Under the pieces are notes generated by a model. It saw nothing but the letters and a program-made list of their open reading frames with translations, had not been told where the DNA came from and did not search any database. From assembly GCA_964533435.1 (NCBI GenBank), contig CAZHLU010000001.1, positions 1 through 50,368 on the forward strand: a stretch of DNA of 50,368 nucleotides. Direction: 5' to 3'. The stretch is from an uncultured Gammaproteobacteria bacterium (GTDB lineage: Bacteria > Patescibacteriota > Patescibacteriia > UBA1558 > GWA2-36-10). Positions 1-21,690 of the stretch are shown piece after piece. The position numbers and the translations under genes are program-made. Each line of letters begins with the position of its first letter. Positions within the stretch are counted from its first letter, which is position 1.

Positions 1-55
1 CCGGTTAATATTTTGTTTTTAGGCATGTTTGTTATTTAGTATTTTTATTTATTTC

Positions 56-188
56 ACCTAACAGATGAGCGTATGTGAAGATGCTTTCGCGGTGACCGTG
101 ATGTAATTTTAACATCACGGGTACAAGAAGGCAATTTACAGAAAACCAGTTCTTTTAAGATGGTTTTCTCGCATGCGTGGTGTTGCGT
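56..188. repeat. attC-like imperfect palindrome A
   Basis: Outer boxes ACCTAAC (56-62) and GTTGCGT (182-188) fit RYYYAAC/GTTRRRY. After a short unpaired spacer there is an 8-bp inner stem 70-77/170-177 with two G-T wobbles on the + strand. Internal hairpins at 95-104/112-122 and 141-148/161-168. Shares the left motif TAACAG-N3-5-AGCGTAT and right motif GGTGTTG with the other copies. Confidence 0.6.
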
Positions 189-226
189 GATGTTGTGCTT
201 CCCCTTACTTTAGGGGATTTTTGGTA

Positions 227-255
227 TTGACAAAATAGTTAAAATATGATATTAT
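227..255 (+). promoter_or_regulatory. sigma70-type promoter of G+C-rich module 1
   Basis: TTGACA (227-232), 17-nt spacer, TATTAT (250-255), TG at 247-248. AAAGGA SD-like element before the ATG at 301. Confidence 0.6.
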
Positions 256-300
256 CATATTGCCATAATGGTGTGGCGAGTACACTGAAAGGATTGGGCC

Positions 301-792
301 ATGTTGTGCATAGGACTATTCGGCACTTGCGGCAAGAGCAAGTGGCGCGCTCCCTTCATACAGCGTTACCAGTCGGAAGACATCGCCTTCTTCAACCCCC
401 AGGTCGATGACTGGAAGCCCGAATGTGCCGTCAAGGAGGCCAAGCACCTCGCCAACGACACGGTGATTCTCTTCCCCATCACCAGCGAGACCTACGCTAC
501 GGGTTCCCTGGCCGAGACTGGTTTCAGCATCCTCAATGCGATCCGTCTGGACGATCGGCGCGACTTCGTCATCCTGATCGAGCAGAATCTTGACGAAGAA
601 CTGGTCGACGAGACGGCGCGCAAGGAGAGTCTCCGGGCTCGCGCACTGGTCAAGGAGCATCTCAAGAAGCTCCGTCTGTCCAACCTATACGTCGTCGAGT
701 GCCTCGAGGAGATGCTCGAGGTCAGTATCACGCTCTACCGAGCGGCCGAGATGCGCGAACCGTTGCGCAAGTTCAATCCGCACGCCGAGTAG
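301..792 (+). CDS. nucleoside 2-deoxyribosyltransferase-like protein (G+C-rich cassette ORF)
   Basis: 163-aa ORF. IGLFGTCGKSKW...FNPQ...D...LFPI...TGSLAETGFS pattern resembles the Nuc_deoxyrib_tr / Nuc_deoxyri_tr2 fold families (from memory). G+C clearly above the flanks. Has its own promoter and terminator. Confidence 0.6.
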   Translation: MLCIGLFGTCGKSKWRAPFIQRYQSEDIAFFNPQVDDWKPECAVKEAKHLANDTVILFPITSETYATGSLAETGFSILNAIRLDDRRDFVILIEQNLDEELVDETARKESLRARALVKEHLKKLRLSNLYVVECLEEMLEVSITLYRAAEMREPLRKFNPHAE

Positions 793-828
793 TCGGCGCC
801 AGACCTGAGCAAGTCTCAAGAACTGCTT

Positions 829-862
829 GCCCGCCGCATCACGCGACGGGCTTTTCTTTTTT
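829..862 (+). terminator. rho-independent terminator of module 1
   Basis: GCCCG-c-CGC / GCG-a-CGGGC stem (829-851) followed by a T-run (852-862). The loop carries CATCACGCGAC, complementary to 182-192. Confidence 0.6.
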
Positions 863-932
863 CTCAAAAAATTACAAAACAAAAAACAATTTCTAAAAGA
901 TTGTTTATTTAATGAATAGAAAATTCGATTTT

Positions 933-1006
933 ATATAACAGCCCAGCGTATCTGAAATCCCGGGCGACCATTAACTTAATAGGCGAGGGATTTGGGCAAG
1001 CGGACT
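933..1006. repeat. attC-like element B (short/truncated copy)
   Basis: Left end ATATAACAGCCCAGCGTATCTGAAATCCC is near-identical to the left end of element D. 7-bp stem 955-961/987-993. No GGTGTTG right end. Confidence 0.45.
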
Positions 1007-1009
1007 AAA

Positions 1010-1339
1010 TTATTTTAATACAATGATAGAGATTCTCCTAATAATTGTCACTGCTGCACCCCAAGCCATTGGCGCCCATAATGGTAATCCAAAAAATGTT
1101 GGATTGGTATATTGCCAAGCGCCTTGGTATATCGTCAAGCTCTCTCCTATTGGTCCAAGTATAAAAGCAGTAAAATAATAGGACACATCTTCTTTATCGT
1201 GCCATTTTAAAAATATAAGAACTGTGATTACTATAAAAGCTATTGTTAACCAAGTATTATTATGGTAAAGGTAGGTGATAGCCACTACACAAACTGCAAA
1301 TAGTATAACTGCTAATAATAATTCTTTTATTTTATTCAT
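1010..1339 (-). CDS. small integral membrane protein, unknown function
   Basis: 109-aa ORF with 3-4 hydrophobic helices and AT-rich native-like composition. No family recognised. Confidence 0.55.
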   Translation of the reverse strand: MNKIKELLLAVILFAVCVVAITYLYHNNTWLTIAFIVITVLIFLKWHDKEDVSYYFTAFILGPIGESLTIYQGAWQYTNPTFFGLPLWAPMAWGAAVTIIRRISIIVLK

Positions 1340-1424
1340 AACTGTATTATGGAATATTTTTATTTATTCCGGACCTGTCCGCCTTTGGCGTAAACCAAAT
1401 ACGCGGTGCGAGATGTTTATAAAA

Positions 1425-1712
1425 TTATTGTTTAATTGGCTCGCACCATCCGAAGGAACTTGCGCACTCCAGGCCATTTCCTTGAAATCCATCGGGGCAG
1501 CCATCATCAGGAATAAGTTTATAGTTTCCTCGTTTCATTCTTTCTACTGAGTTTATACAACAGTCGGTCTTTTTTTCACATTGATCAGCTAATTTTTGAT
1601 AGTAATCAATAGTGATTAATTTTGCATCTTGATTATTTGAGTTAAAATAGGCGATTAATCCTATTAGTAGAATAACTGTAATTATTCCAGTTGTTAATTT
1701 TATTTTTTTCAT
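1425..1712 (-). CDS. small secreted/anchored Cys-rich protein
   Basis: 95-aa ORF. N-terminal hydrophobic signal/anchor (KLTTGIITVILLIGLIAYF) and 7 Cys in the C-terminal half. Confidence 0.5.
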   Translation of the reverse strand: MKKIKLTTGIITVILLIGLIAYFNSNNQDAKLITIDYYQKLADQCEKKTDCCINSVERMKRGNYKLIPDDGCPDGFQGNGLECASSFGWCEPIKQ

Positions 1713-1741
1713 ATGGTATTTTAATAGTTTTAATAAATTTT

Positions 1742-1950
1742 GTCTAACAGGCCAGCGTATGCTACGTTACGAGCGAGCTTTGCGGTAAAATATTTGCGGA
1801 GCAAACCGCAAAGGCGAACGAGTAATGTAGGTCTTAGCTTACACCTATCATAGGTTAAAATTAAAAGTGTCTAAGCTAATTTAAGCACTTTTAACTATAA
1901 ATTTCAAATGTAGCATTGGTGTAAGCTAAGTCGCATACGCGGTGTTGTGG
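1742..1950. repeat. attC-like imperfect palindrome C
   Basis: GTCTAAC (1742-1748) / GTTGTGG (1944-1950). Perfect 8-bp inner stem GCGTATGC/GCATACGC (1755-1762/1933-1940). Internal hairpins at 1778-1785/1806-1813 and a 15-bp stem at 1831-1845/1918-1932. Confidence 0.6.
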
Positions 1951-1968
1951 GATGTTTTGGCTTATTAC

Positions 1969-1997
1969 TTGACAAATATCTTATTATATATTATATT
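1969..1997 (+). promoter_or_regulatory. sigma70-type promoter of G+C-rich module 2
   Basis: TTGACA (1969-1974), 17 nt, TATATT (1992-1997). AAGGAGG lies 6 nt before the ATG at 2040. Confidence 0.6.
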
Positions 1998-2039
1998 AGC
2001 GATGGCAATACCGCCAAAAACTCTTTAAGGAGGTAGCCA

Positions 2040-2225
2040 ATGCTAATAGTCTTTTATGTGAAGTTTTCCGACATCGATCGCCTGCGAAAAGGTGAGGCGG
2101 TCCCTGCGATGGAAAGTCAAACAAACGATTTCTATCGCATAGAGGCCGAAGTCGAAGAAGTGAAGATCTACCAAGATCCCAACGTCAGCTCGCGTCGGTT
2201 GGTGAAGAAGCTCCATCAACGCTAG
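2040..2225 (+). CDS. hypothetical 61-aa protein (G+C-rich cassette ORF)
   Basis: ORF directly preceded by a strong SD (AAGGAGG) and a consensus promoter, and followed by a hairpin terminator. No family recognised. Confidence 0.5.
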   Translation: MLIVFYVKFSDIDRLRKGEAVPAMESQTNDFYRIEAEVEEVKIYQDPNVSSRRLVKKLHQR

Positions 2226-2264
2226 TCCGACGAGTGCGGTCGCTGACTGACAGCTCCCCACAAC

Positions 2265-2311
2265 ACCGCCTTATCGAAAGCCGCACGGCTTCGGTCGGGC
2301 GGTTTTCATTT
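2265..2311 (+). terminator. hairpin terminator of module 2 (possibly also a mini attC-like site)
   Basis: ACCGCC...GGCGGT long hairpin (2265-2303) followed by TTTTCATTTT. Immediately preceded by CCCACAACACCG (2257-2268). Confidence 0.5.
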
Positions 2312-2332
2312 TATATGCCTGCCCAAACCAAA

Positions 2333-2468
2333 ATTTAACAGGACAGCGTATCTGAAGTTCCGAAGCGAGTGGCGTGGTAAAATTGCGCGGCTTGCCAGCC
2401 GTAACTTTAGCGAAGGTTGGAGCGCACCACGCAAACGAGCGAGGGATGTAGAGGAGTGAGCGTTAAAG
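2333..2468. repeat. attC-like element D (left end plus conserved internal hairpin)
   Basis: ATTTAAC (2333-2339), then AGGACAGCGTATCTG. Stem 2372-2378/2426-2432 flanked by AGCGAG / GGTAAAAT / AACGAG...GATGTAG blocks shared with element C. TTTAAC/GTTAAA (2334-2339/2462-2467) are complementary. Confidence 0.55.
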
Positions 2469-2486
2469 AATAAAATTATTTAAAAA

Positions 2487-2990
2487 TTAAAGTTTTTTTA
2501 TTCTTTTTAATATAAACCAAGAAAAATGATTGCCATATCTTTGATGTAATGTTTTTAATTTCCAGTCATTACCAGTTATTATTTTTCTACAATATTTACT
2601 GCCACACTCACATTTTAGCTTATAGGGGTAAGTAGTGATAGTGGCATAATCAACAGTAATTTCCTCACCCTTTTTAATATTTTTTAATGCCACAAAAGTT
2701 ATTTCTCCATCTGGTCCAGCGTTTGGTTGGCAAGAGTGGTTAAAACTAACAACTAAGTTTTTGATTTCATCTTTTCTTATTGGCGCAAGAAAGAATTTAT
2801 CAGAAATTTGTACCTCAAAATCTCCGACTTCTTTGTGACAACGCATTGCTTCTTTAAAATTTACAATATGCCCCATTTTTATAAAGACCACCTCACCTTT
2901 TTTAATATTAGTTTTAGCAAATAATCCTTTTCCGCCGATTTTGCTTGTTTTAACTATTGTCTTTGGTGAGCGGTAACATTTAATTTTCAT
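2487..2990 (-). CDS. SET-domain protein (putative lysine methyltransferase)
   Basis: 167 aa. Has FNHSCQPN, EEITVDY and a post-SET CxCxxxxC (CECGSKYC), the classic SET signatures. Confidence 0.8.
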   Translation of the reverse strand: MKIKCYRSPKTIVKTSKIGGKGLFAKTNIKKGEVVFIKMGHIVNFKEAMRCHKEVGDFEVQISDKFFLAPIRKDEIKNLVVSFNHSCQPNAGPDGEITFVALKNIKKGEEITVDYATITTYPYKLKCECGSKYCRKIITGNDWKLKTLHQRYGNHFSWFILKRIKKL

Positions 2991-3014
2991 ATATTTTTAA
3001 ATAATTTTATTCTA

Positions 3015-3055
3015 GCTCGCTCCTCGGATATCCGGTGTTGGGCGAAACGTGGGTT
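3015..3055. repeat. attC-like right end (GGATATCC-GGT-GTTGGGC) plus left arm of the module 3 inverted repeat
   Basis: GCTCGCTCCTC (3015-3025) is inverted relative to GAGGAGTGAGC (2451-2461). GATATCC (3027-3033) can pair with GCGTATC (2346-2352). GTTGGGC (3037-3043) fits GTTRRRY. Positions 3035-3055 are complementary to 3428-3448. Confidence 0.5.
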
Positions 3056-3094
3056 AAATTTTTTATTTTATTAAAATATTAGTTTTTATAGTTA

Positions 3095-3123
3095 TTGACA
3101 GGTATTGTTATGTGTTGTATTAT
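3095..3123 (+). promoter_or_regulatory. sigma70-type promoter of G+C-rich module 3
   Basis: TTGACA (3095-3100), 17 nt, TATTAT (3118-3123). AAGGAGG precedes the ATG at 3154. Confidence 0.6.
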
Positions 3124-3153
3124 ATCTAGTTCCCCAAAAGGAGGTGTGTCAGC

Positions 3154-3351
3154 ATGTCACTGAAACGTCAGTTCATTCGAGGTCAGGTTGTGGTTTTCCT
3201 TCTCAGTCTGCTCGTGTGGTATCTCTTTACTCCGAGGCCGATCTTTTCAACACAAGGGGTGACGATTTTTGTGGTCAGTCTCGCAATTCTGGAGGCGATG
3301 TTTCTCATTCTGCGGGCTGATGAGCAGAGGTCAAGGACACAACCCAAATAG
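3154..3351 (+). CDS. small two-TM membrane protein (G+C-rich cassette ORF)
   Basis: 65 aa with two hydrophobic helices (VVVFLLSLLVWYLF, VTIFVVSLAILEAMFLIL) and a charged tail. Strong SD, own promoter and terminator. Confidence 0.55.
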   Translation: MSLKRQFIRGQVVVFLLSLLVWYLFTPRPIFSTQGVTIFVVSLAILEAMFLILRADEQRSRTQPK

Positions 3352-3376
3352 CATCTTCACGATGCACGATTCTCTG

Positions 3377-3415
3377 AAGGCGGTGCTGGTTAGTTCCAGT
3401 GTCGCCTTTTCTATT
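3377..3415 (+). terminator. rho-independent terminator of module 3
   Basis: AAGGCGGTGCTGG / CCAGTGTCGCCTT stem (3377-3408) followed by TTTTCTATTT. Confidence 0.6.
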
Positions 3416-3439
3416 TGTTTAAAAATGAACCCACGTTTC

Positions 3440-3493
3440 GCCTAACACTGTGTTGACGCACCTGTTGACATCATAGCCAAAATTAGCTAAAAA
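3440..3493. promoter_or_regulatory. candidate attI-like junction and recombinase promoter
   Basis: GCCTAAC (3440-3446; GTTAGGC on the minus strand), then two direct TGTTGAC repeats (3451-3457, 3463-3469). The second repeat overlaps TTGACA (3465-3470), followed by 17 nt and TAAAAA (3488-3493), upstream of the ATG at 3524. Confidence 0.4.
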
Positions 3494-3523
3494 GTAAATA
3501 ATAAACATTAATCACAAACTATT

Positions 3524-4390
3524 ATGAAAAGCGATTTTAAGGCCTTAAGAAAGCCTCAGTTTTTGGTCAATAACCATCCTTTAGACAGTCTAGCTCAAGA
3601 GCTTATAATTAGGGGATTTTCTCGGCGGACTATCCAGAGCTATTTATCTCACAATCAGCGATTTTTGGACTTTAGTGGCAAATCAGCCAGAGCCGTCGAT
3701 AGTCAGGATGTCAAAAATTATTTGCTTTATCTTAAGAGTCAAAATTATACCAACACCTCTCTCAATCAAGTTATTTCAGCTCTTAAGTTTTATTACGGAC
3801 AGATTCTAAAAAGGAAGCTGTTTTTTAGTATTCGGCGGCCTAAGAAAGAAAAGTTTTTACCAACTATTTTGACAAAATCTGAAATTATAAAAATAATAAA
3901 TTGTTCACATAACCTAAAACACAAATTACTTTTGTCTTTAATGTATGGTTCGGGCCTAAGAGTGTCAGAAGTGATTAAAATAAAAATAAATCATTTGGAT
4001 TTAGGTTCTAAAAGCTTATTAGTCAAAGATGCTAAAGGGCAAAAAGATCGTTTTACTTTATTAAGTGCTATTAGTATCAAATTATTAAATCTTTATTTAC
4101 CAAAATTGTCGAGTGAGCAAAAATATTTATTTTCTGGGCAAAATGGTATGTCTCATCTTAGTCAACGTAGCGCACAAAAAATATTTGAAATTGCTTTGCA
4201 AGAATCAAGTATAAAAAAAGATGCTACCTGCCATAGTTTGCGCCATAGTTTTGCTACTCACTTATTGGAGAGTGGAGTTGATATTCGTTATATCCAAAAA
4301 TTATTAGGCCACCAAAATATCAAAACTACAGAAATTTATACGCATGTAGCTAGAAGTTTTTTTAATAATATCAAAAGCCCACTAGACTAA
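3524..4390 (+). CDS. tyrosine recombinase, IntI/Xer-related (integron-integrase-like but without the IntI-specific insertion)
   Basis: 288 aa. Catalytic signature GLRVSE, KGQKDR, HSLRHSFATHLL, LLGHQN, EIYTHV. ALKFYYGQIL and the C-terminal IKSPLD resemble IntI1 ALLFFYGKVL and VRSPLD (from memory). The segment between DRFTLL and KYLF is short. Confidence 0.85.
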   Translation: MKSDFKALRKPQFLVNNHPLDSLAQELIIRGFSRRTIQSYLSHNQRFLDFSGKSARAVDSQDVKNYLLYLKSQNYTNTSLNQVISALKFYYGQILKRKLFFSIRRPKKEKFLPTILTKSEIIKIINCSHNLKHKLLLSLMYGSGLRVSEVIKIKINHLDLGSKSLLVKDAKGQKDRFTLLSAISIKLLNLYLPKLSSEQKYLFSGQNGMSHLSQRSAQKIFEIALQESSIKKDATCHSLRHSFATHLLESGVDIRYIQKLLGHQNIKTTEIYTHVARSFFNNIKSPLD

Positions 4391-4403
4391 AAAACAGTCC
4401 TTT

Positions 4404-11045: not shown

Positions 11046-11813
11046 ATGTCAGTAGCGGATTTTTTAAATAATTTTTCTAAAGAGAAGTTGGAAAATATTT
11101 ATAATGATCCAAGGGCAGCTTTTTATTTGGTGAATAAGTCAAAAGGCCAACACTCATTTAAAATTGTAGCTACTCTGCGCCAGCTTTTGGGTATTAAAAA
11201 AGTTGGTTTTGCCGGTACCTTAGACCCATTAGCCTCTGGTTTGATGATAATAGCTGCAGGGCCCGCTACTAAATTATTAGATCTATTTCATCTGCTACCT
11301 AAGACTTATCAAGTTAGTATAGTTTTTGGGCAAACTTCAGCTAGTTTTGATTTAGAACAAGATGTAATAATAAATTCCAATGCCAAAGAATTTACTAGAG
11401 AGGATCTAGATAAATATTTAAATAATTTTTTAGGTAAACAAGAACAAGTAGTGCCAATTTATTCAGCTAAAAAAGTAGCTGGTAAAAAATTACATGAGTT
11501 AGCCAGGCTTGGGCAGACTTTAGAAAATTTGCCCAAGAATAAAATTGAAATTTATAGTTTAAAAGTTTTATCTTTTTCTTATCCAAATTTAGATTTAGAG
11601 GTCAGCTGTTCGGCCGGTACTTATATTCGTAGTTTGGTAAGTGATTTGGGTCATTTAAGTAAAAACGGCGCCGTTATGTCTGATTTAAAAAGAACTGAAA
11701 TTGGCCCCTGCTATTTAAATCAAGCTATTGATATGAAAGATTTATCAGTTATTGAAATAAAAAAACAAGCCTTAAGTGTTAAAGAGATGCTTGCTTCTTT
11801 GTCTAAATTTTAG
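11046..11813 (+). CDS. truB: tRNA pseudouridine(55) synthase
   Basis: 255 aa with the GTLDPLASGLM catalytic-Asp motif. Confidence 0.85.
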   Translation: MSVADFLNNFSKEKLENIYNDPRAAFYLVNKSKGQHSFKIVATLRQLLGIKKVGFAGTLDPLASGLMIIAAGPATKLLDLFHLLPKTYQVSIVFGQTSASFDLEQDVIINSNAKEFTREDLDKYLNNFLGKQEQVVPIYSAKKVAGKKLHELARLGQTLENLPKNKIEIYSLKVLSFSYPNLDLEVSCSAGTYIRSLVSDLGHLSKNGAVMSDLKRTEIGPCYLNQAIDMKDLSVIEIKKQALSVKEMLASLSKF

Positions 11814-11874
11814 TTAGTTTTTATTTGTGAGCTTAACTATCAGTGCCTTTAATTTGGTCACTGATTTTTTTTAA
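11761..11874. repeat. direct repeat copy 1 (truB 3' end plus intergenic region plus relic of the convergent gene's 3' end)
   Basis: About 113 bp, near-identical to 14164-14276 except for a 13-nt variable block and one extra T in a T-run. Confidence 0.85.
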
Positions 11875-12622
11875 TATTTTTTAAGTAATTTTCAGCTTTT
11901 AGTGATACATCCCAAATTATTTCAAAAATGGAATGGAAGACTTCGGCCAGTGTTGAATCACTGATGATTAATAAGTATCTATGTTCGAATGAGTAAAGGG
12001 CAACATTATTTTCCCATAGGGATAAATCGTAGTTAAAATGGTGTCCGCGGGGCATAACACGCATTTGTATGCGCATTTTTTTTGAATTATTTAGTAGATT
12101 CAAATTAACGTCATCGTGTGAAATTAATCCACGGGTTTTTTGAAATTTATCAATACTGAATCTTTTTTCCAAAGTTTCAAAAAGATTTGGGAAGTGTTCT
12201 AGCCATTTAACATGATTAGATATAAAGTCATTTTTTTTTGCATACCCGATTTCTTCTAACCAGACTTTTTCCATGTCTTCGCGATGATCATAATATCTAA
12301 TCACGGGTTTATCTTTTGGTTGATGTGTAAAAGATTTAAGTAAAGGTAAAATTTCTAAAGCAGTCTGTTCTTGCTCTCTAATATGACGTAAAAAGCGACT
12401 AGGCGGATCCGCATTATAAAAAGTTTTTTTACCCTTAAAGGTTAATCCGGCTAGTTGTTTCCGTCTTAATTCTTCTAATACTAAATAAACAGTTGGCCTT
12501 TTTAAGCCCGTTTTGTTGGCAATAGCTAAAGGAGTTGTTTTACCTAACTCTAATAAAGTAAGATAAACTTTGGCTTCTCGCTCGGTTAAATTTAATTTTT
12601 GTAGATTTTTAATAATATCCAT
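11858..12622 (-). CDS. TrmB-family transcriptional regulator
   Basis: 254 aa. N-terminal wHTH LTEREAKVYLTLLELGKTTPLAIANKTGLKRPTVYLVLEEL is typical of TrmB (PF01978). The stop codon lies inside the direct repeat. Confidence 0.75.
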   Translation of the reverse strand: MDIIKNLQKLNLTEREAKVYLTLLELGKTTPLAIANKTGLKRPTVYLVLEELRRKQLAGLTFKGKKTFYNADPPSRFLRHIREQEQTALEILPLLKSFTHQPKDKPVIRYYDHREDMEKVWLEEIGYAKKNDFISNHVKWLEHFPNLFETLEKRFSIDKFQKTRGLISHDDVNLNLLNNSKKMRIQMRVMPRGHHFNYDLSLWENNVALYSFEHRYLLIISDSTLAEVFHSIFEIIWDVSLKAENYLKNIKKNQ

Positions 12623-12825
12623 ATTCTTAATATACGATAAAATAAAAAAATGTCAAGAATTATAACATAATTTTTAAATTTTATATATTTTTGGCTAATA
12701 TTAGAGAATAAAAAGCTATTTTACTATTTTAAATAGTGACAATTTTTAGATATAAGATAATCTTAAATTAAGACAGTACTTTAAAAATTAATTTATTGGC
12801 CTTAAATTGTGAATAGAGGTGCGTT

Positions 12826-13092
12826 ATGAATAAGAATACTGCGTTAGCCCCAGTTTGTTTAAATGTGATTTGCGGTATTTATAATTGCCCACACTATCCT
12901 AATTTGAGCAAGACGACAGCTAATATTTATTGGCAAATACCACCTTGTCATATTGATATGGCTCATTCCTATTGTGCTGTATTTAAGGTTAATAGTGGTC
13001 ATTGTGGAGAGTGTGGCATTATTGTTTGTCAGCAAAATAATTTGCTTGACAACACGATGACACAAATTGCAGAGGAAGGGGAAAAGCCATGA
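12826..13092 (+). CDS. Cys-rich 88-aa protein, unknown function
   Basis: AGAGGTG SD 5 nt upstream. 8 Cys including HCGECGIIVC. Stop overlaps the protease start (ATGA). Confidence 0.45.
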   Translation: MNKNTALAPVCLNVICGIYNCPHYPNLSKTTANIYWQIPPCHIDMAHSYCAVFKVNSGHCGECGIIVCQQNNLLDNTMTQIAEEGEKP

Positions 13093-14069
13093 AGAAATTC
13101 GTGACTTGTGTGCTAGTTGTGCTAGCGAGTTGTTTGCTGGTATTAGGGTGTGATCGACAAGCAGGCGATCCTGTTAATCCGGATTTGCTTGATGGTAGTG
13201 ACGGGTTTAGTGATTTTAATCCAGTGGATGTTGATAGTCAGTATACGCAGGATGAGCTTGATAGCATGTTTGCTGATACTATCAGGGAAGACAATTATTC
13301 ATCTTTGACAATTTCTGACTATTTGGCAGCCGAAAAGATGATGATTACTGATTTTCCGGACAAGGCTTTGAATTTGCGAGGAAGGACAGTGATTAGCAAT
13401 ACGACTTCTTCGCCGGCGCGTTTTGTTGGCATTATTACCTCTTTTTGGCCTAATGGTAGGATGACCACTGGTAGTGGTTATATGGTTGGGTCTAAGCATG
13501 TGTTGACTGCTGGTCACAACGTTTATTTCGCCCAATTTGGTGGTTATGCTCGCGCTATTCTTTTTTCACCTGGTCTTAATAGGGATGTTTTTCCTTATGG
13601 CACGTCTAATGTAAACGCTAGTCGTACGCCACGAGCTTGGATTACTAGTGCAAATAAAGAAGCAGATGTCAGTGTTTTGCGTTTGCAACATTCCCTTGGT
13701 TATAGAACTGGTTGGATTTATCTGGAAGCGTGGTATAGTAGCGATACAAGTTCCAGGAGCTGTAGAATGAATGGTTATGATGGTGATGCTTTCTCTTATT
13801 ATGGTAAGCCAGTACAAATGACTCGGTCTGGGACCGCTGATGTTTTGAAAGATTGGGCATTTAGAGCTACTAATAGGTATGCTGCTAATTTTTATGCTCC
13901 TGCTGGTTCTAGCGGTGGTTTGCTTTGGCGCGTAGCCTCAGGAGGTACTCCAGTTGCTATCGGCGTCAGTACTGATGGAAATGCTTTTGGACTTTCCCGT
14001 TCTCAAGGTGTGCGAATGACTCCTGCCTTGACCGATTTGGTCAGAGCATTTAAGGCTGATTATCCGTAA
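13089..14069 (+). CDS. secreted lipoprotein, trypsin-like (V8/Glu-specific-like) serine protease
   Basis: Lipobox LVLGC. Catalytic triad context TAGHNV (His), EADVSVLRL (Asp), GSSGG (Ser). G+C above the neighbours. Terminator hairpin at 14081-14115. Confidence 0.8.
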   Translation: MKKFVTCVLVVLASCLLVLGCDRQAGDPVNPDLLDGSDGFSDFNPVDVDSQYTQDELDSMFADTIREDNYSSLTISDYLAAEKMMITDFPDKALNLRGRTVISNTTSSPARFVGIITSFWPNGRMTTGSGYMVGSKHVLTAGHNVYFAQFGGYARAILFSPGLNRDVFPYGTSNVNASRTPRAWITSANKEADVSVLRLQHSLGYRTGWIYLEAWYSSDTSSRSCRMNGYDGDAFSYYGKPVQMTRSGTADVLKDWAFRATNRYAANFYAPAGSSGGLLWRVASGGTPVAIGVSTDGNAFGLSRSQGVRMTPALTDLVRAFKADYP

Positions 14070-14163
14070 TTACATTTTTGGGATCCAGTGTATTTATGCA
14101 TTGGATCCCTTTTTGTATAGTTGTTATTTTTTTATTTTATCTGAGGAATATAAATTTTTTTCT

Positions 14164-14276
14164 AAAAACAAGCCTTAAGTGTTAAAGAGATGCTTGCTTC
14201 TTTGTCTAAATTTTAGTTAGTTTTTATTGGCAAGTTTAATTATCAGTGCCTTTAATTTGGTCGCTGATTTTTTTAA
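14164..14276. repeat. direct repeat copy 2
   Basis: Duplicates the last ~50 bp of truB (no truB body upstream) plus the intergenic region. Overlaps the genuine 3' end of the 14236-14487 gene. Confidence 0.85.
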
Positions 14277-14487
14277 CAGCGTCATGTTCTATGTGTCCAG
14301 CATCGGCTAGTTTGTGTAAATGACCGATAAATTCAGTATGACTCATCTCTGCGTGCCCAAAATGAATACCTAAAGATTCAGAGGCCTTATTTAAGTGCTC
14401 TAAAGCTTGTTGAGAATCAAAGGCATGGGGTACTAATTCTTTAGCAAAATGTAATTGTTCACTACCAGTGATGTGTGTATTTAGCAT
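14236..14487 (-). CDS. His-rich hypothetical protein
   Basis: 83-aa ORF with native composition. No family recognised. Confidence 0.5.
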   Translation of the reverse strand: MLNTHITGSEQLHFAKELVPHAFDSQQALEHLNKASESLGIHFGHAEMSHTEFIGHLHKLADAGHIEHDAVKKISDQIKGTDN

Positions 14488-14567
14488 TGTTAGGACTTGA
14501 CTTAATTATTAATTTATGTTAATATTTTTTGGTCTTTATAATATAATTTTAATCTAAATTCAGTATT

Positions 14568-14849
14568 ATGCCAAATAAGAAAGCTGCTATTAAGCACTTA
14601 CGCCAGACCAAAAAAAGAACTTTAGTTAATGCTATTGTTAAAAGGCGTATCAAAAATTTAGTAAAACAAGGCCAAAAAGCTATTGCTGATGGTTCTATTA
14701 AAGAAAAACATCAGGCTTTAAGTCATGATTTACAAAAAACCGTAGATAAGGCTGTTAAAAAAGGTTTAATTAAACCTAATGCTGGTAACCGTAAAAAGGC
14801 TAGATTTATGAAAAGTATTAATAAATCTTTAGCTAGTAGTAAGAAATAA
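14568..14849 (+). CDS. rpsT: 30S ribosomal protein S20
   Basis: MPNKKAAIKHLRQTKKRT..., basic, 93 aa. TTGACT-17-TAATAT promoter upstream. Confidence 0.9.
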   Translation: MPNKKAAIKHLRQTKKRTLVNAIVKRRIKNLVKQGQKAIADGSIKEKHQALSHDLQKTVDKAVKKGLIKPNAGNRKKARFMKSINKSLASSKK

Positions 14850-14909
14850 TTTTTGCTTTATTTTATCTTAAAATAATACAGCCCTGCACCGTACGGTGCA
14901 GGGCTGTAT

Positions 14910-15860
14910 TTATATTTGGCCAATAATTTTAACAAAGAGTAATTGGGGGTCTAGACTACTGGTTTTAAGTTTAGTATCCAGGATTAATAATTGTTGGTAG
15001 ATATTTTTTAGTTGTTCTAGGCTATAGTTGCGAGTTTGTTTAAAAGTTTTTTCTGCTAGCCAAGGCTGTATTTTTAAGGCCTGCGCTAAGGCGCCGGGGT
15101 AATCAGCTTGTTTAGTAATTAATTTAGCTTTTAGTAGTAAACGATATTGACGGATGATCATGCTTAATAAATATTGAGGATTGGCACCACTATTCATTTG
15201 CTCGTTTAAAAGTTGTAGTGCTAGAGCCTTGTCTTGATTGCCTAGGGCATCAATAAAGTTAAAGATATTTTCATCTAGTTTAGCGTTTACGAGCTCTTTA
15301 ACAGTATTTTCTTCAATATCAGTTTGGCTGTAGTTTGTTAATTTATTTATTTCTTGACTTAAAGCCCATAAGTCATTACCAACATAAGCAATTAATAAAC
15401 GGATAGCTTGAGGGCTAATATTTTTTTTATTTTTTTGACATTGTTTTTTTACCCAAATTTCTAGTTGGCTGCTAGAAAGTTTGGCAAACTCTTCAACATA
15501 TTTAAAAGTTTTTAATTTTTTATAAAGTTTAAGTCTGGCATCAGGCTTATTTGTTTCCCAAAAAATTAAGTAATTTTCTTCTGGGCTATCATTTTGTTTT
15601 TGTAAAAAATTAAGCAGAGCATCTTGCCAACTGGCTAGCTTTTTATTACTAAAAATATTTTTAATAATAATCAATTTTTTACTAGCCAAAAATCCAGTCA
15701 CCGAAATAGCCTGAAAAAAATCGTCAGCTTTAATAGCTTCACCATCAAGATGAAGGATATTATGTCCGCCCGGATCAATTTCGCTTTTAAATTTTTTGGC
15801 AATAGCATCAATTTTATTTTTAGCTAGCCAAGAATTTTCGCCGTAGTAAAAGAATATCAT
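14910..15860 (-). CDS. holA: DNA polymerase III subunit delta
   Basis: 316 aa. N-terminal FYYGENSWL and overall HolA-like pattern. Adjacent to polA. Confidence 0.7.
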   Translation of the reverse strand: MIFFYYGENSWLAKNKIDAIAKKFKSEIDPGGHNILHLDGEAIKADDFFQAISVTGFLASKKLIIIKNIFSNKKLASWQDALLNFLQKQNDSPEENYLIFWETNKPDARLKLYKKLKTFKYVEEFAKLSSSQLEIWVKKQCQKNKKNISPQAIRLLIAYVGNDLWALSQEINKLTNYSQTDIEENTVKELVNAKLDENIFNFIDALGNQDKALALQLLNEQMNSGANPQYLLSMIIRQYRLLLKAKLITKQADYPGALAQALKIQPWLAEKTFKQTRNYSLEQLKNIYQQLLILDTKLKTSSLDPQLLFVKIIGQI

Positions 15861-20623: not shown

Positions 20624-20655
20624 CAAGCGGGGAGATTACATCAAACCGCTTTTTA
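20624..20655. repeat. terminator-hairpin direct repeat, copy 1
   Basis: CAAGCGGGGAGATTACATCAAACCGCTTTTTA. 31/32 identical to 21539-21570. Confidence 0.8.
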
Positions 20656-20739
20656 AATTGACAAAAATGTGTAGTGATAATATACTAGGGCATAACTTTG
20701 TTCACTGACAAGTTACTTAAAAACCTAGGAGGTAGGACA

Positions 20740-21538: not shown

Positions 21539-21570
21539 CAAGCGGGGAGATTATATCAAACCGCTTTTTA
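21539..21570. repeat. terminator-hairpin direct repeat, copy 2
   Basis: CAAGCGGGGAGATTATATCAAACCGCTTTTTA. Confidence 0.8.
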
Positions 21571-21579
21571 TTTTTTTAA

Positions 21580-21690
21580 AACAAAAAACAACCTAGTACT
21601 AGATTGTCTATTGGAGACCGCTCTTCAATCCGTCTCCGCCAGTGGGCGGATGGTGGATTTAGGGCAAGCTCATTAAAAATTTAGTTTTTT
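21580..21690. repeat. att-like direct repeat (distal copy) of the tRNA-Cys island
   Basis: AACAAAAAACAACC...GTCTATTGGAGACCGC...GGGCAAGCTCATTAAAAATTTAG aligns with 24522-24612. Carries an extra G+C-rich hairpin at 21629-21657. Confidence 0.7.

Follow-up and report, generated by a model that had tools for sequence, protein, structure and literature searches.

How did a regulator gene and a protease gene come to stand between two convergent genes of a patescibacterial chromosome while both of those genes kept their complete 3' ends? This question is raised by a stretch of 50,368 nucleotides (contig CAZHLU010000001.1, positions 1 to 50,368, here called the window) from a Patescibacteria (Parcubacteria-like) bacterium of wastewater and activated sludge. 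In this window truB, which encodes tRNA pseudouridine-55 synthase, and a convergent gene for a His-rich protein of 83 amino acids (aa) flank a small island, the truB islet, that carries a TrmB-type regulator, a small Cys-rich protein, and a lipoprotein serine protease. The interior of the islet is an insertion that duplicated its target, and relatives with the uninterrupted site are available for comparison.

The islet is bounded by a pair of direct repeats (11761 to 11871 and 14164 to 14274) that a repeat search aligned over 111 nucleotides (nt), of which 105 are identical (95%), with a start-to-start spacing of 2403. This is the longest direct repeat in all 50,368 bases; the runner-up measures 76 nt and is located inside a coding region. 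The first 64 to 65 nt of the alignment contain no differences, and the right half contains all six mismatches. If the terminal T-run is allowed to slip by 1 nt, the match becomes ~113 nt long. Both edges of the repeat are in homopolymer runs, with five to seven A residues at 11759 to 11765 and 14164 to 14168 and seven to eight T residues at 11865 to 11872 and 14268 to 14274. The left repeat holds the real last 53 nt of truB, including the TAG stop codon at 11811 to 11813, and truB is intact because this repeat is its genuine 3' end. The right repeat carries the real last 39 nt of the 83-aa gene, of which the left repeat has an orphan 39-nt copy. The convergent junction of truB and the 83-aa gene at the insertion point is 19 bp long and is not unusually conserved, its conservation being the same as that across the rest of truB. 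The 83-aa gene has no family match in Pfam or NCBIfam profile searches. A preliminary description of this DNA had proposed near-identical repeats of ~113 bp, in each of which the end of truB is followed by the intergenic region and by the 3' end of the 83-aa gene, and had placed a real truB at the left copy only and a real 83-aa gene at the right copy only. The repeat search and the map of open reading frames (ORFs) agree with that proposal on each of these points.

The same description suggested that related genomes with truB directly facing the 83-aa gene should be sought, and five were found: L023 and L024 (each ~93% identical to the window in DNA), L001 (86% DNA identity), L016 (84% DNA identity), and the more distant L002 (58% TruB identity). 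In each of them truB faces the small gene across one repeat copy, and the gene order is truB, small gene, and then rpsT, holA, and polA, as in the window. The synteny of truB is kept in L001, L016, and L023. The flanking repeats of the window match the single copy in the empty sites of L023, L024, L001, and L016, and the two BLAST segments of L023 overlap by exactly the repeat, which shows that this locus has just one copy. Since the empty sites of all five relatives are single copy, the 2,292 bp between the repeats (11872 to 14163) plus one repeat copy are derived. Based on these relatives, we conclude that the 2,292-bp interior is an insertion with a duplicated truB/83-aa junction, as had been supposed. 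Both flanking genes kept complete 3' ends because entry duplicated 111 to 113 bp of the target. The JGI metagenome collection, which evidently does not contain these samples, gave 0 matches when it was scanned for an invariant 24-mer from the truB end.

Long duplications invite the suspicion of misassembly, which the preliminary description had itself voiced, and several independent assemblies dispel it. For the left junction there are three independent ENA assemblies (L017 to L019); for the right one there are five ENA contigs and one JGI contig (L004, from a strain 93% identical). A Logan contig of sequencing run X2 spans 11796 to 14193, from within one repeat to within the other, and a 195-nt metatranscriptome contig (11708 to 11902) crosses the left repeat. 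In run X1, the 65-nt unitig common to both repeats has about twice the depth of the flanks (20.9 versus 12.9 and 11.4). The run data are contigs built with k = 31, in which the 64-nt identical block masks empty-site and junction k-mers. The ENA, JGI, and Logan DNA assemblies, the RNA assembly, and the doubled unitig depth are in agreement, and the repeat-bounded arrangement is real.

One edge of the islet can be resolved to a joint within a gene. The last four codons of the regulator and its TGA stop are inside the left repeat, and this stop exists because of the A/G mismatch at 11860. A homologue of the regulator, P0272, has 81% aa identity and 74% DNA identity to it, and the two genes are homologous in DNA from a point 70 nt ahead of the start codon to position 11864, in the T-run that marks the edge of the repeat. 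The P0272 protein ends in ...YVKQKKIKLKKKKR, followed by a terminator, and the window regulator ends in ...YLKNIKKNQ. Thus the native Lys-rich tail, which is present in P0272, has been replaced at the T-run in the window regulator, and its final residues are the antisense of the duplicated 83-aa-gene fragment. This edge of the islet is a chimeric joint within the tail of the incoming regulator gene. The genomic setting of P0272 is a different one, made up of an exonuclease III-like gene, three small Cys-rich ORFs, the TrmB homologue, and a DUF4015 gene. This setting has no long flanking repeats, and none flank locus L010. More distant TrmB homologues are neither beside similar proteases nor in repeat-bounded islands, and their divergent neighbors are unrelated secreted proteins or lipoproteins. 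We also considered the small Cys-rich neighbors of P0272 as a match to the 88-aa protein of the islet, and we do not claim one, as the resemblance is only suggestive (BLASTP E = 0.13). The coordinates of the features of the locus are given in Table 1.

Table 1. Features of the truB islet and its two target genes (window coordinates)
Feature	Position	Strand	Basis or content
truB, tRNA pseudouridine-55 synthase, left target gene	11046..11813	+	Pfam TruB_N 2e-46; TIGR00431 193 bits, over cutoff
Left direct repeat (DR-L)	11761..11871		Real truB 3' end 11761-11813, spacer, orphan 83-aa-gene 3' end 11833-11871
TrmB-type helix-turn-helix (HTH) regulator, 254 aa	11858..12622	-	PF01978 E = 1.4e-14, 54 bits vs cutoff 25.6
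AT-rich divergent control region, 203 bp	12623..12825		Composition, ~21% G+C
TrmB promoter-like site	12656-12629	-	TTGACA-16-TATATT, 11/12 matches, near consensus
88-aa protein with 8 Cys	12826..13092	+	ORF; stop overlaps protease start (ATGA)
326-aa lipoprotein serine protease, S1B (glutamyl-endopeptidase-like)	13089..14069	+	PDB 1p3c match E = 6.7e-8
Intrinsic terminator of peptide-protease operon	14080..14117	+	13-bp stem, then T-tract
Right direct repeat (DR-R)	14164..14274		Orphan truB 3' fragment 14164-14216, spacer, real 83-aa-gene 3' end 14236-14274
83-aa gene, right target gene, His-rich, conserved, intact	14236..14487	-	Adjoins truB in all empty-site relatives

The cargo had been described as a TrmB-type regulator whose reading frame terminates inside the repeat, a Cys-rich peptide, and a secreted trypsin-like lipoprotein protease with higher G+C, and the analysis bears out each part of this. 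The regulator has an N-terminal TrmB winged-helix DNA-binding domain. Its C-terminal two thirds match no known family, and the full-length NCBIfam equivalogs score far under their cutoffs. The 88-aa protein has no Pfam or NCBIfam match. All eight of its Cys residues are kept in the 93% strain L004, with a ratio of nonsynonymous to synonymous polymorphism (pN/pS) of 0.40, and judging from the overlap of its stop with the protease start it is translationally coupled to the protease. The protease has a lipoprotein signal with the lipobox ...LVLGC and Cys21. Its homology is to the S1B family (glutamyl endopeptidases), and its catalytic residues H143, D193, and S275 are invariant among seven aligned homologues. 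An exhaustive HMMER search recovered 2,632 distant homologues, the best of which are 36 to 44% identical; no Pfam model matched at threshold, the Trypsin_2 score being too low. Like the S1B glutamyl endopeptidases (the V8 family and the Bacillus intermedius enzyme, 1p3c), it is predicted to be secreted and to have a trypsin fold, and its His-Asp-Ser triad is in the conserved motifs TAGHN, D193, and GSSGG. In contrast to these enzymes, to which it is only ~25 to 30% identical, it has a lipoprotein anchor and an acidic N-terminal extension of ~95 aa.

The G+C content of the protease gene is 43.6% (42 to 45% for the region), compared with 31 to 35% in neighboring genes (30 to 34% for the flanks), but its G+C at third codon positions (GC3) is only moderately raised, 0.32 versus 0.23 to 0.25. 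By its composition, the gene looks foreign, but its arrival was not recent. Comparison of the window with L004 gives a pN/pS of 0.07 for the protease, a value that shows purifying selection on its coding sequence. All three cargo genes are transcribed: in two metatranscriptomes from wastewater, they reach roughly half the depth of truB. Directly after the predicted terminator and over the 83-aa gene the coverage falls to 0, a pattern that mere carry-over of DNA would not be expected to give. The regulator would control expression of the surface-displayed lipoprotein protease, which plausibly serves in peptide scavenging or in interaction with a host cell. A 21-nt inverted repeat (12636 to 12656 and 14121 to 14141, 90% complementary) places a near copy of the -35 region of the TrmB promoter at the right end of the island (TTGACATTTTTTTATTTTATC versus TTGTTATTTTTTTATTTTATC). 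This inverted repeat might serve as a second operator, or it may have arisen by chance in such AT-rich DNA.

The two repeats have had different histories in their two halves. The right half of DR-L is identical to the single copy of L023, L024, and L004 and is the ancestral state. Six derived substitutions distinguish the right half of the window DR-R; five fall within a span of 12 nt, and the changes recur in runs X6 and X11. Clustered in this way, they look more like a patch that was imported or changed at several bases at once than like the result of gradual decay. The left halves (64 nt), which are identical, have four states in common that are derived when compared with L023, L024, and L001. 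In L004, the orphan truB fragment has the window state at one of the four positions (A at 11781/14184) and the ancestral state at the other three, and four further changes are particular to it. The absence of any difference in 64 nt between a coding and a noncoding copy is unexpected at a silent divergence of ~0.19 and points to either gene conversion between the repeats or recent re-integration. The silent divergence of the island between the window and L004 is 0.15 to 0.19, and that of truB between the window and L023 is 0.20. Because the island has diverged as much as truB, its residence in these lineages is about as old as their separation.

At least three of the ~93%-related lineages are filled (the window, L004/X8, and X6/X11), and one is empty (L023/L024). 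We considered whether the empty strains are nested among the filled ones, which would have indicated precise loss, and dropped this idea: the left-flank variants of X6 match L023 at only 2 of 35 positions, and informative sites in 260 bp of the right flank split 3 versus 2. The depth of the island unitigs in run X3 is ~55% of that of the flanks (7.1 versus 12.7 and 11.5, from unitig depths that are noisy), and the flanks are identical. In run X6, from a strain ~93 to 94% related, a 4,389-bp Logan contig spans the island, and in it 11651 to 11981 is replaced by 310 letters that are unalignable at 80%. What is replaced is the left repeat, together with 160 nt at the end of truB and 124 nt at the end of the TrmB gene, so the left junction of that strain is a different one. 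Just to the right of 12040, a 30-nt piece of X6 translates as RQMRVIPSGY, which is closer to P0272 than to the window TrmB protein.

We searched for signs that the islet belongs to a known class of mobile element. The three island ORFs contain no recombinase or transposase domain in Pfam or NCBIfam searches, and no inverted repeats were found at the island ends, so the earlier statement that no integrase or transposase is present stands for the island itself; a tyrosine recombinase gene is located 7.4 kb upstream, at 3524 to 4390. The preliminary description had also suggested looking for the same cargo flanked by other host sequences. None was found: among 5.8 billion clustered proteins the protease occurs at the truB locus only, in the window, in a 97% variant in L004, and in a Logan variant, and the IMG/VR, phage, and plasmid collections contained no relatives of the island. 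Thus the islet lacks both the internal integrase or recombinase and the recurrence in independent genomes or sites of a site-specific integrative island. It also lacks the transposase, the terminal inverted repeats, and the short (2 to 15 bp) duplication of a transposon or insertion sequence, its duplication being 111 bp. Nor does it fit an integron cassette, which would have an attC site at its end and be inserted at attI or at a GTT secondary site. The motif TAACAGNNCAGCGTAT of the nearby integron-like region occurs four times in 1 to 2400 and not near the island, and the island has its own promoter, regulator, and terminator. It does have the combination of long imperfect direct repeats and no island recombinase that is typical of the island of Escherichia coli H47.

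That microcin H47 island, which is the closest described analogue of the truB islet, has direct repeats of 148 and 144 bp with 76% identity and no recombinase, and it excises and integrates experimentally without RecA or any of 16 K-12 site-specific recombinases (Azpiroz, Bascuas, and Lavina 2011, PMC3191183; Azpiroz and Lavina 2017, PMC5426353). Both are small islands with long imperfect direct repeats (here 111 bp at 95%) and no island integrase or excisionase, and in both the repeats are a mosaic of identical and diverged segments. The H47 island differs in that its excision was shown experimentally, whereas the truB islet is known from its sequence. In addition, the H47 island is 13 kb long, carries bacteriocin cargo, and is from a proteobacterium, whereas the truB islet has 2.3 kb with a regulator and a protease, is from Patescibacteria, and has repeats that demonstrably duplicate two convergent gene ends. 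Insertion at the 3' end of a gene is known from tyrosine-recombinase islands, such as the dusA-specific ones (PMC4482086), and from integrative mobilizable and cis-mobilizable elements (CIMEs). As in such islands and CIMEs, a duplicate gene end keeps the target intact, direct repeats flank the islet, and relatives have empty sites. Unlike them, the truB islet has no integrase, has a much longer identity block than is usual, one that extends over two gene ends, and was not found at other sites or in other hosts. A third comparison is with the homology-facilitated and double illegitimate recombination described in natural transformation (PMC3240628). These events have microhomology joints made without a dedicated recombinase; both islet joints are in A/T runs, one of them truncates the tail of the incoming gene, and the host genome encodes type IV pilus components. 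Type IV pilus genes are of the kind used for DNA uptake. However, illegitimate events of this sort usually delete or replace recipient DNA, and to leave a 111-bp duplication behind they would have to involve an additional backward switch of template, or a staggered break, or else a circular intermediate.

Taking these observations together, we think it somewhat better than an even bet that the islet is an acquired cassette that entered by a one-off duplicative illegitimate (or Campbell-type) insertion and was afterwards inherited vertically, with conversion between its repeats. A horizontally acquired, self-contained accessory cassette (the regulator with its promoter, the divergent operon for the Cys-rich protein and the protease, and a terminator) would have entered a single time at the truB/83-aa junction, in an ancestor of the ~93%-related Patescibacteria strains. 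We infer that entry required neither an island-encoded nor a dedicated recombinase. Taken-up foreign DNA may have been joined at A/T-run microhomologies, with the duplication made by a replication or repair end that switched back ~112 bp or by a staggered break of ~112 nt. Alternatively, there may have been a single Campbell-type crossover of a circularized fragment that carried a copy of the junction. The islet would then have been inherited with the chromosome, with its repeats as substrates for host recombination, which would homogenize the left half; the right half would have received an imported patch, and precise loss would be possible. The edges in homopolymer runs, the loss of the TrmB tail at the T-run, the lack of mobility genes, and the codivergence with the host speak for this account. 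Several points weigh against it. A repeat that exactly restores both flanking genes has the attL/attR look of an integrative element, and in a genome of 31% G+C the repeat edges may coincide with A/T runs by chance. The identical left half could stem from recent excision and re-integration, not conversion, and the depth of X3 could reflect a mixture of filled and empty cells, which would mean that the islet is still moving or being lost. There is also a tyrosine recombinase gene at a distance of 7.4 kb. The left junction of X6 is unalignable over 331 nt, and the history must therefore be more complex than one event. Finally, the joining mechanism is read from the sequence alone.

The main rival is a site-specific element of which the repeats are attL and attR. 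Its integrase would have been lost by deletion, or it would never have had one and would be mobilized in trans by a recombinase encoded elsewhere (CIME-like or satellite-like), and it could still leave as a circle and re-enter at the truB/83-aa junction. We regard this as a serious but distinctly less probable account. It is favored by direct repeats that restore both target genes, by close relatives with empty sites, by left 64 nt that are identical between the copies despite ~7% strain divergence, by island depth below flank depth in X3, and by the recombinase gene at 3524 to 4390, which is missing at the matching place in the empty-site relative L001. However, the repeat motif that accompanies that recombinase is an unrelated one that the island lacks, and housekeeping genes separate the recombinase from the island. 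The island has neither integrase nor excisionase, it is present at one locus only with its protease nowhere else, and it has no viral or plasmid relatives. Moreover, att identity blocks are usually far shorter than this repeat, which has homopolymer runs at its edges, the C terminus of the TrmB protein is a junction chimera, and the island has codiverged with its host. More broadly, an islet that is actively mobile without a recombinase of its own, by host recombination on the ~111-bp duplication or by a tyrosine recombinase acting in trans, for instance the one of the integron-like region nearby, so that the mosaic repeats and the possible mixture of filled and empty cells would be its footprints, seems to us rather improbable. 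The version in which an integrase-free islet moves by host recombination, RecA independent or RecA dependent, in the manner of the H47 island and leaves hybrid repeats behind is slightly more doubtful again. It shares the anatomy of that island, with long imperfect direct repeats and no island recombinase (PMC3191183, PMC5426353), and a repeat mosaic of one identical and one diverged block, and it could account for a possible mixture of filled and empty cells in X3. Against this, informative sites split 3 versus 2 on the phylogeny of filled and empty strains, and vertical codivergence needs no mobility. We give very little weight to an ancestral arrangement from which the "empty" relatives would have arisen by deletion, or to an artefact of assembly or binning. 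Recombination between the repeats would indeed give exactly the empty site, and contigs of several assemblies break within the island. But all outgroups, down to 58% TruB identity, are empty, the orphan gene-end fragments can only be derived, and both junctions are present in independent ENA, JGI, and Logan DNA assemblies and in RNA assemblies, with the shared unitig doubled.

Outside the islet, the neighborhood of truB shows other strain differences. In L023, L024, and apparently X6, there are an extra 123 to 124 bp between the 83-aa gene and rpsT (window ~14497 to 14501), at 1518 to 1640 in L023 and 570 to 692 in L024, that have no counterpart in the window, L001, or L016; in L023 they lengthen the small ORF to 99 aa. 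On the other side, uvrB and truB are adjacent in the window, and L002 has two additional genes between them (676 to 2650; a 472-aa secreted repeat protein and a 140-aa protein), so the neighborhood is variable on that side too. The segment with rpsT and its upstream region (14492 to 14720) is 100% identical to 9045 to 9273 of L001, with flanks that are 80 to 93% identical, and the S20 protein is identical in the 93% strains too. This suggests either a recent import by recombination or extreme constraint. Between rpsT and holA, at 14875 to 14911, a stretch of 33 to 36 nt matches itself inverted, and in several runs it is on short unitigs of raised depth that continue in different ways. A bidirectional terminator that other genomes have too is the probable explanation. 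Farther away, a 43-nt direct repeat (20624 to 20666 and 21539 to 21581, 86% identical) with the shape of a hairpin plus T-run (CAAGCGGGGAGATTA.ATCAAACCGCTTTTT) brackets a segment of ~900 bp with a histidine-phosphatase-like ORF.

The tyrosine recombinase upstream of the islet is part of a region with features of its own. It is encoded on the + strand, has 288 aa, and matches best the NCBIfam model "XerA / integron integrase" (227 bits versus a cutoff of 220); its score against the integron-integrase subfamily is 210 bits, with a cutoff of 265. Upstream of the recombinase, the four copies of the motif mentioned above begin at 59, 936, 1745, and 2336, where 0.34 would be expected, and the motif is nowhere else in the window. 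A 28-nt inverted repeat (3035 to 3062 and 3421 to 3448) that contains GTTGGGC and GCCTAAC brackets a small ORF of high G+C. Cassette-like ORFs of very different G+C alternate in 1 to 4400; among them, the ORF at 301 to 792 has ~60% G+C and a nucleoside deoxyribosyltransferase-like domain, and the ORF at 2487 to 2990 has a SET domain. When the region was folded in search of attC-like hairpins, z-scores were not significant except for one element. On these features, 1 to 4400 might, as a hypothesis, be an integron.

Patescibacteria have tiny genomes with few recognized mobile elements, and to our knowledge the means by which they gain accessory genes are largely unknown. The truB locus provides a clean, strain-resolved example of filled and empty alleles within ~7% divergence, in which a regulator-protease cassette was gained without disruption of two housekeeping genes and without a recognizable recombinase. 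The feature works like a small genomic islet made by target duplication, looks ordinary and not self-mobile, and is a fresh instance of a known sort of feature, not a new kind. If its repeats are inactive, it would be an ordinary genomic islet formed by illegitimate recombination; if they are recombinationally active, it would extend the "parasitic" mobility strategy of the H47 type to a very distant phylum. The cargo includes a transcribed, strongly conserved surface protease, which could plausibly help an episymbiotic cell to scavenge nutrients or to attach to its host.

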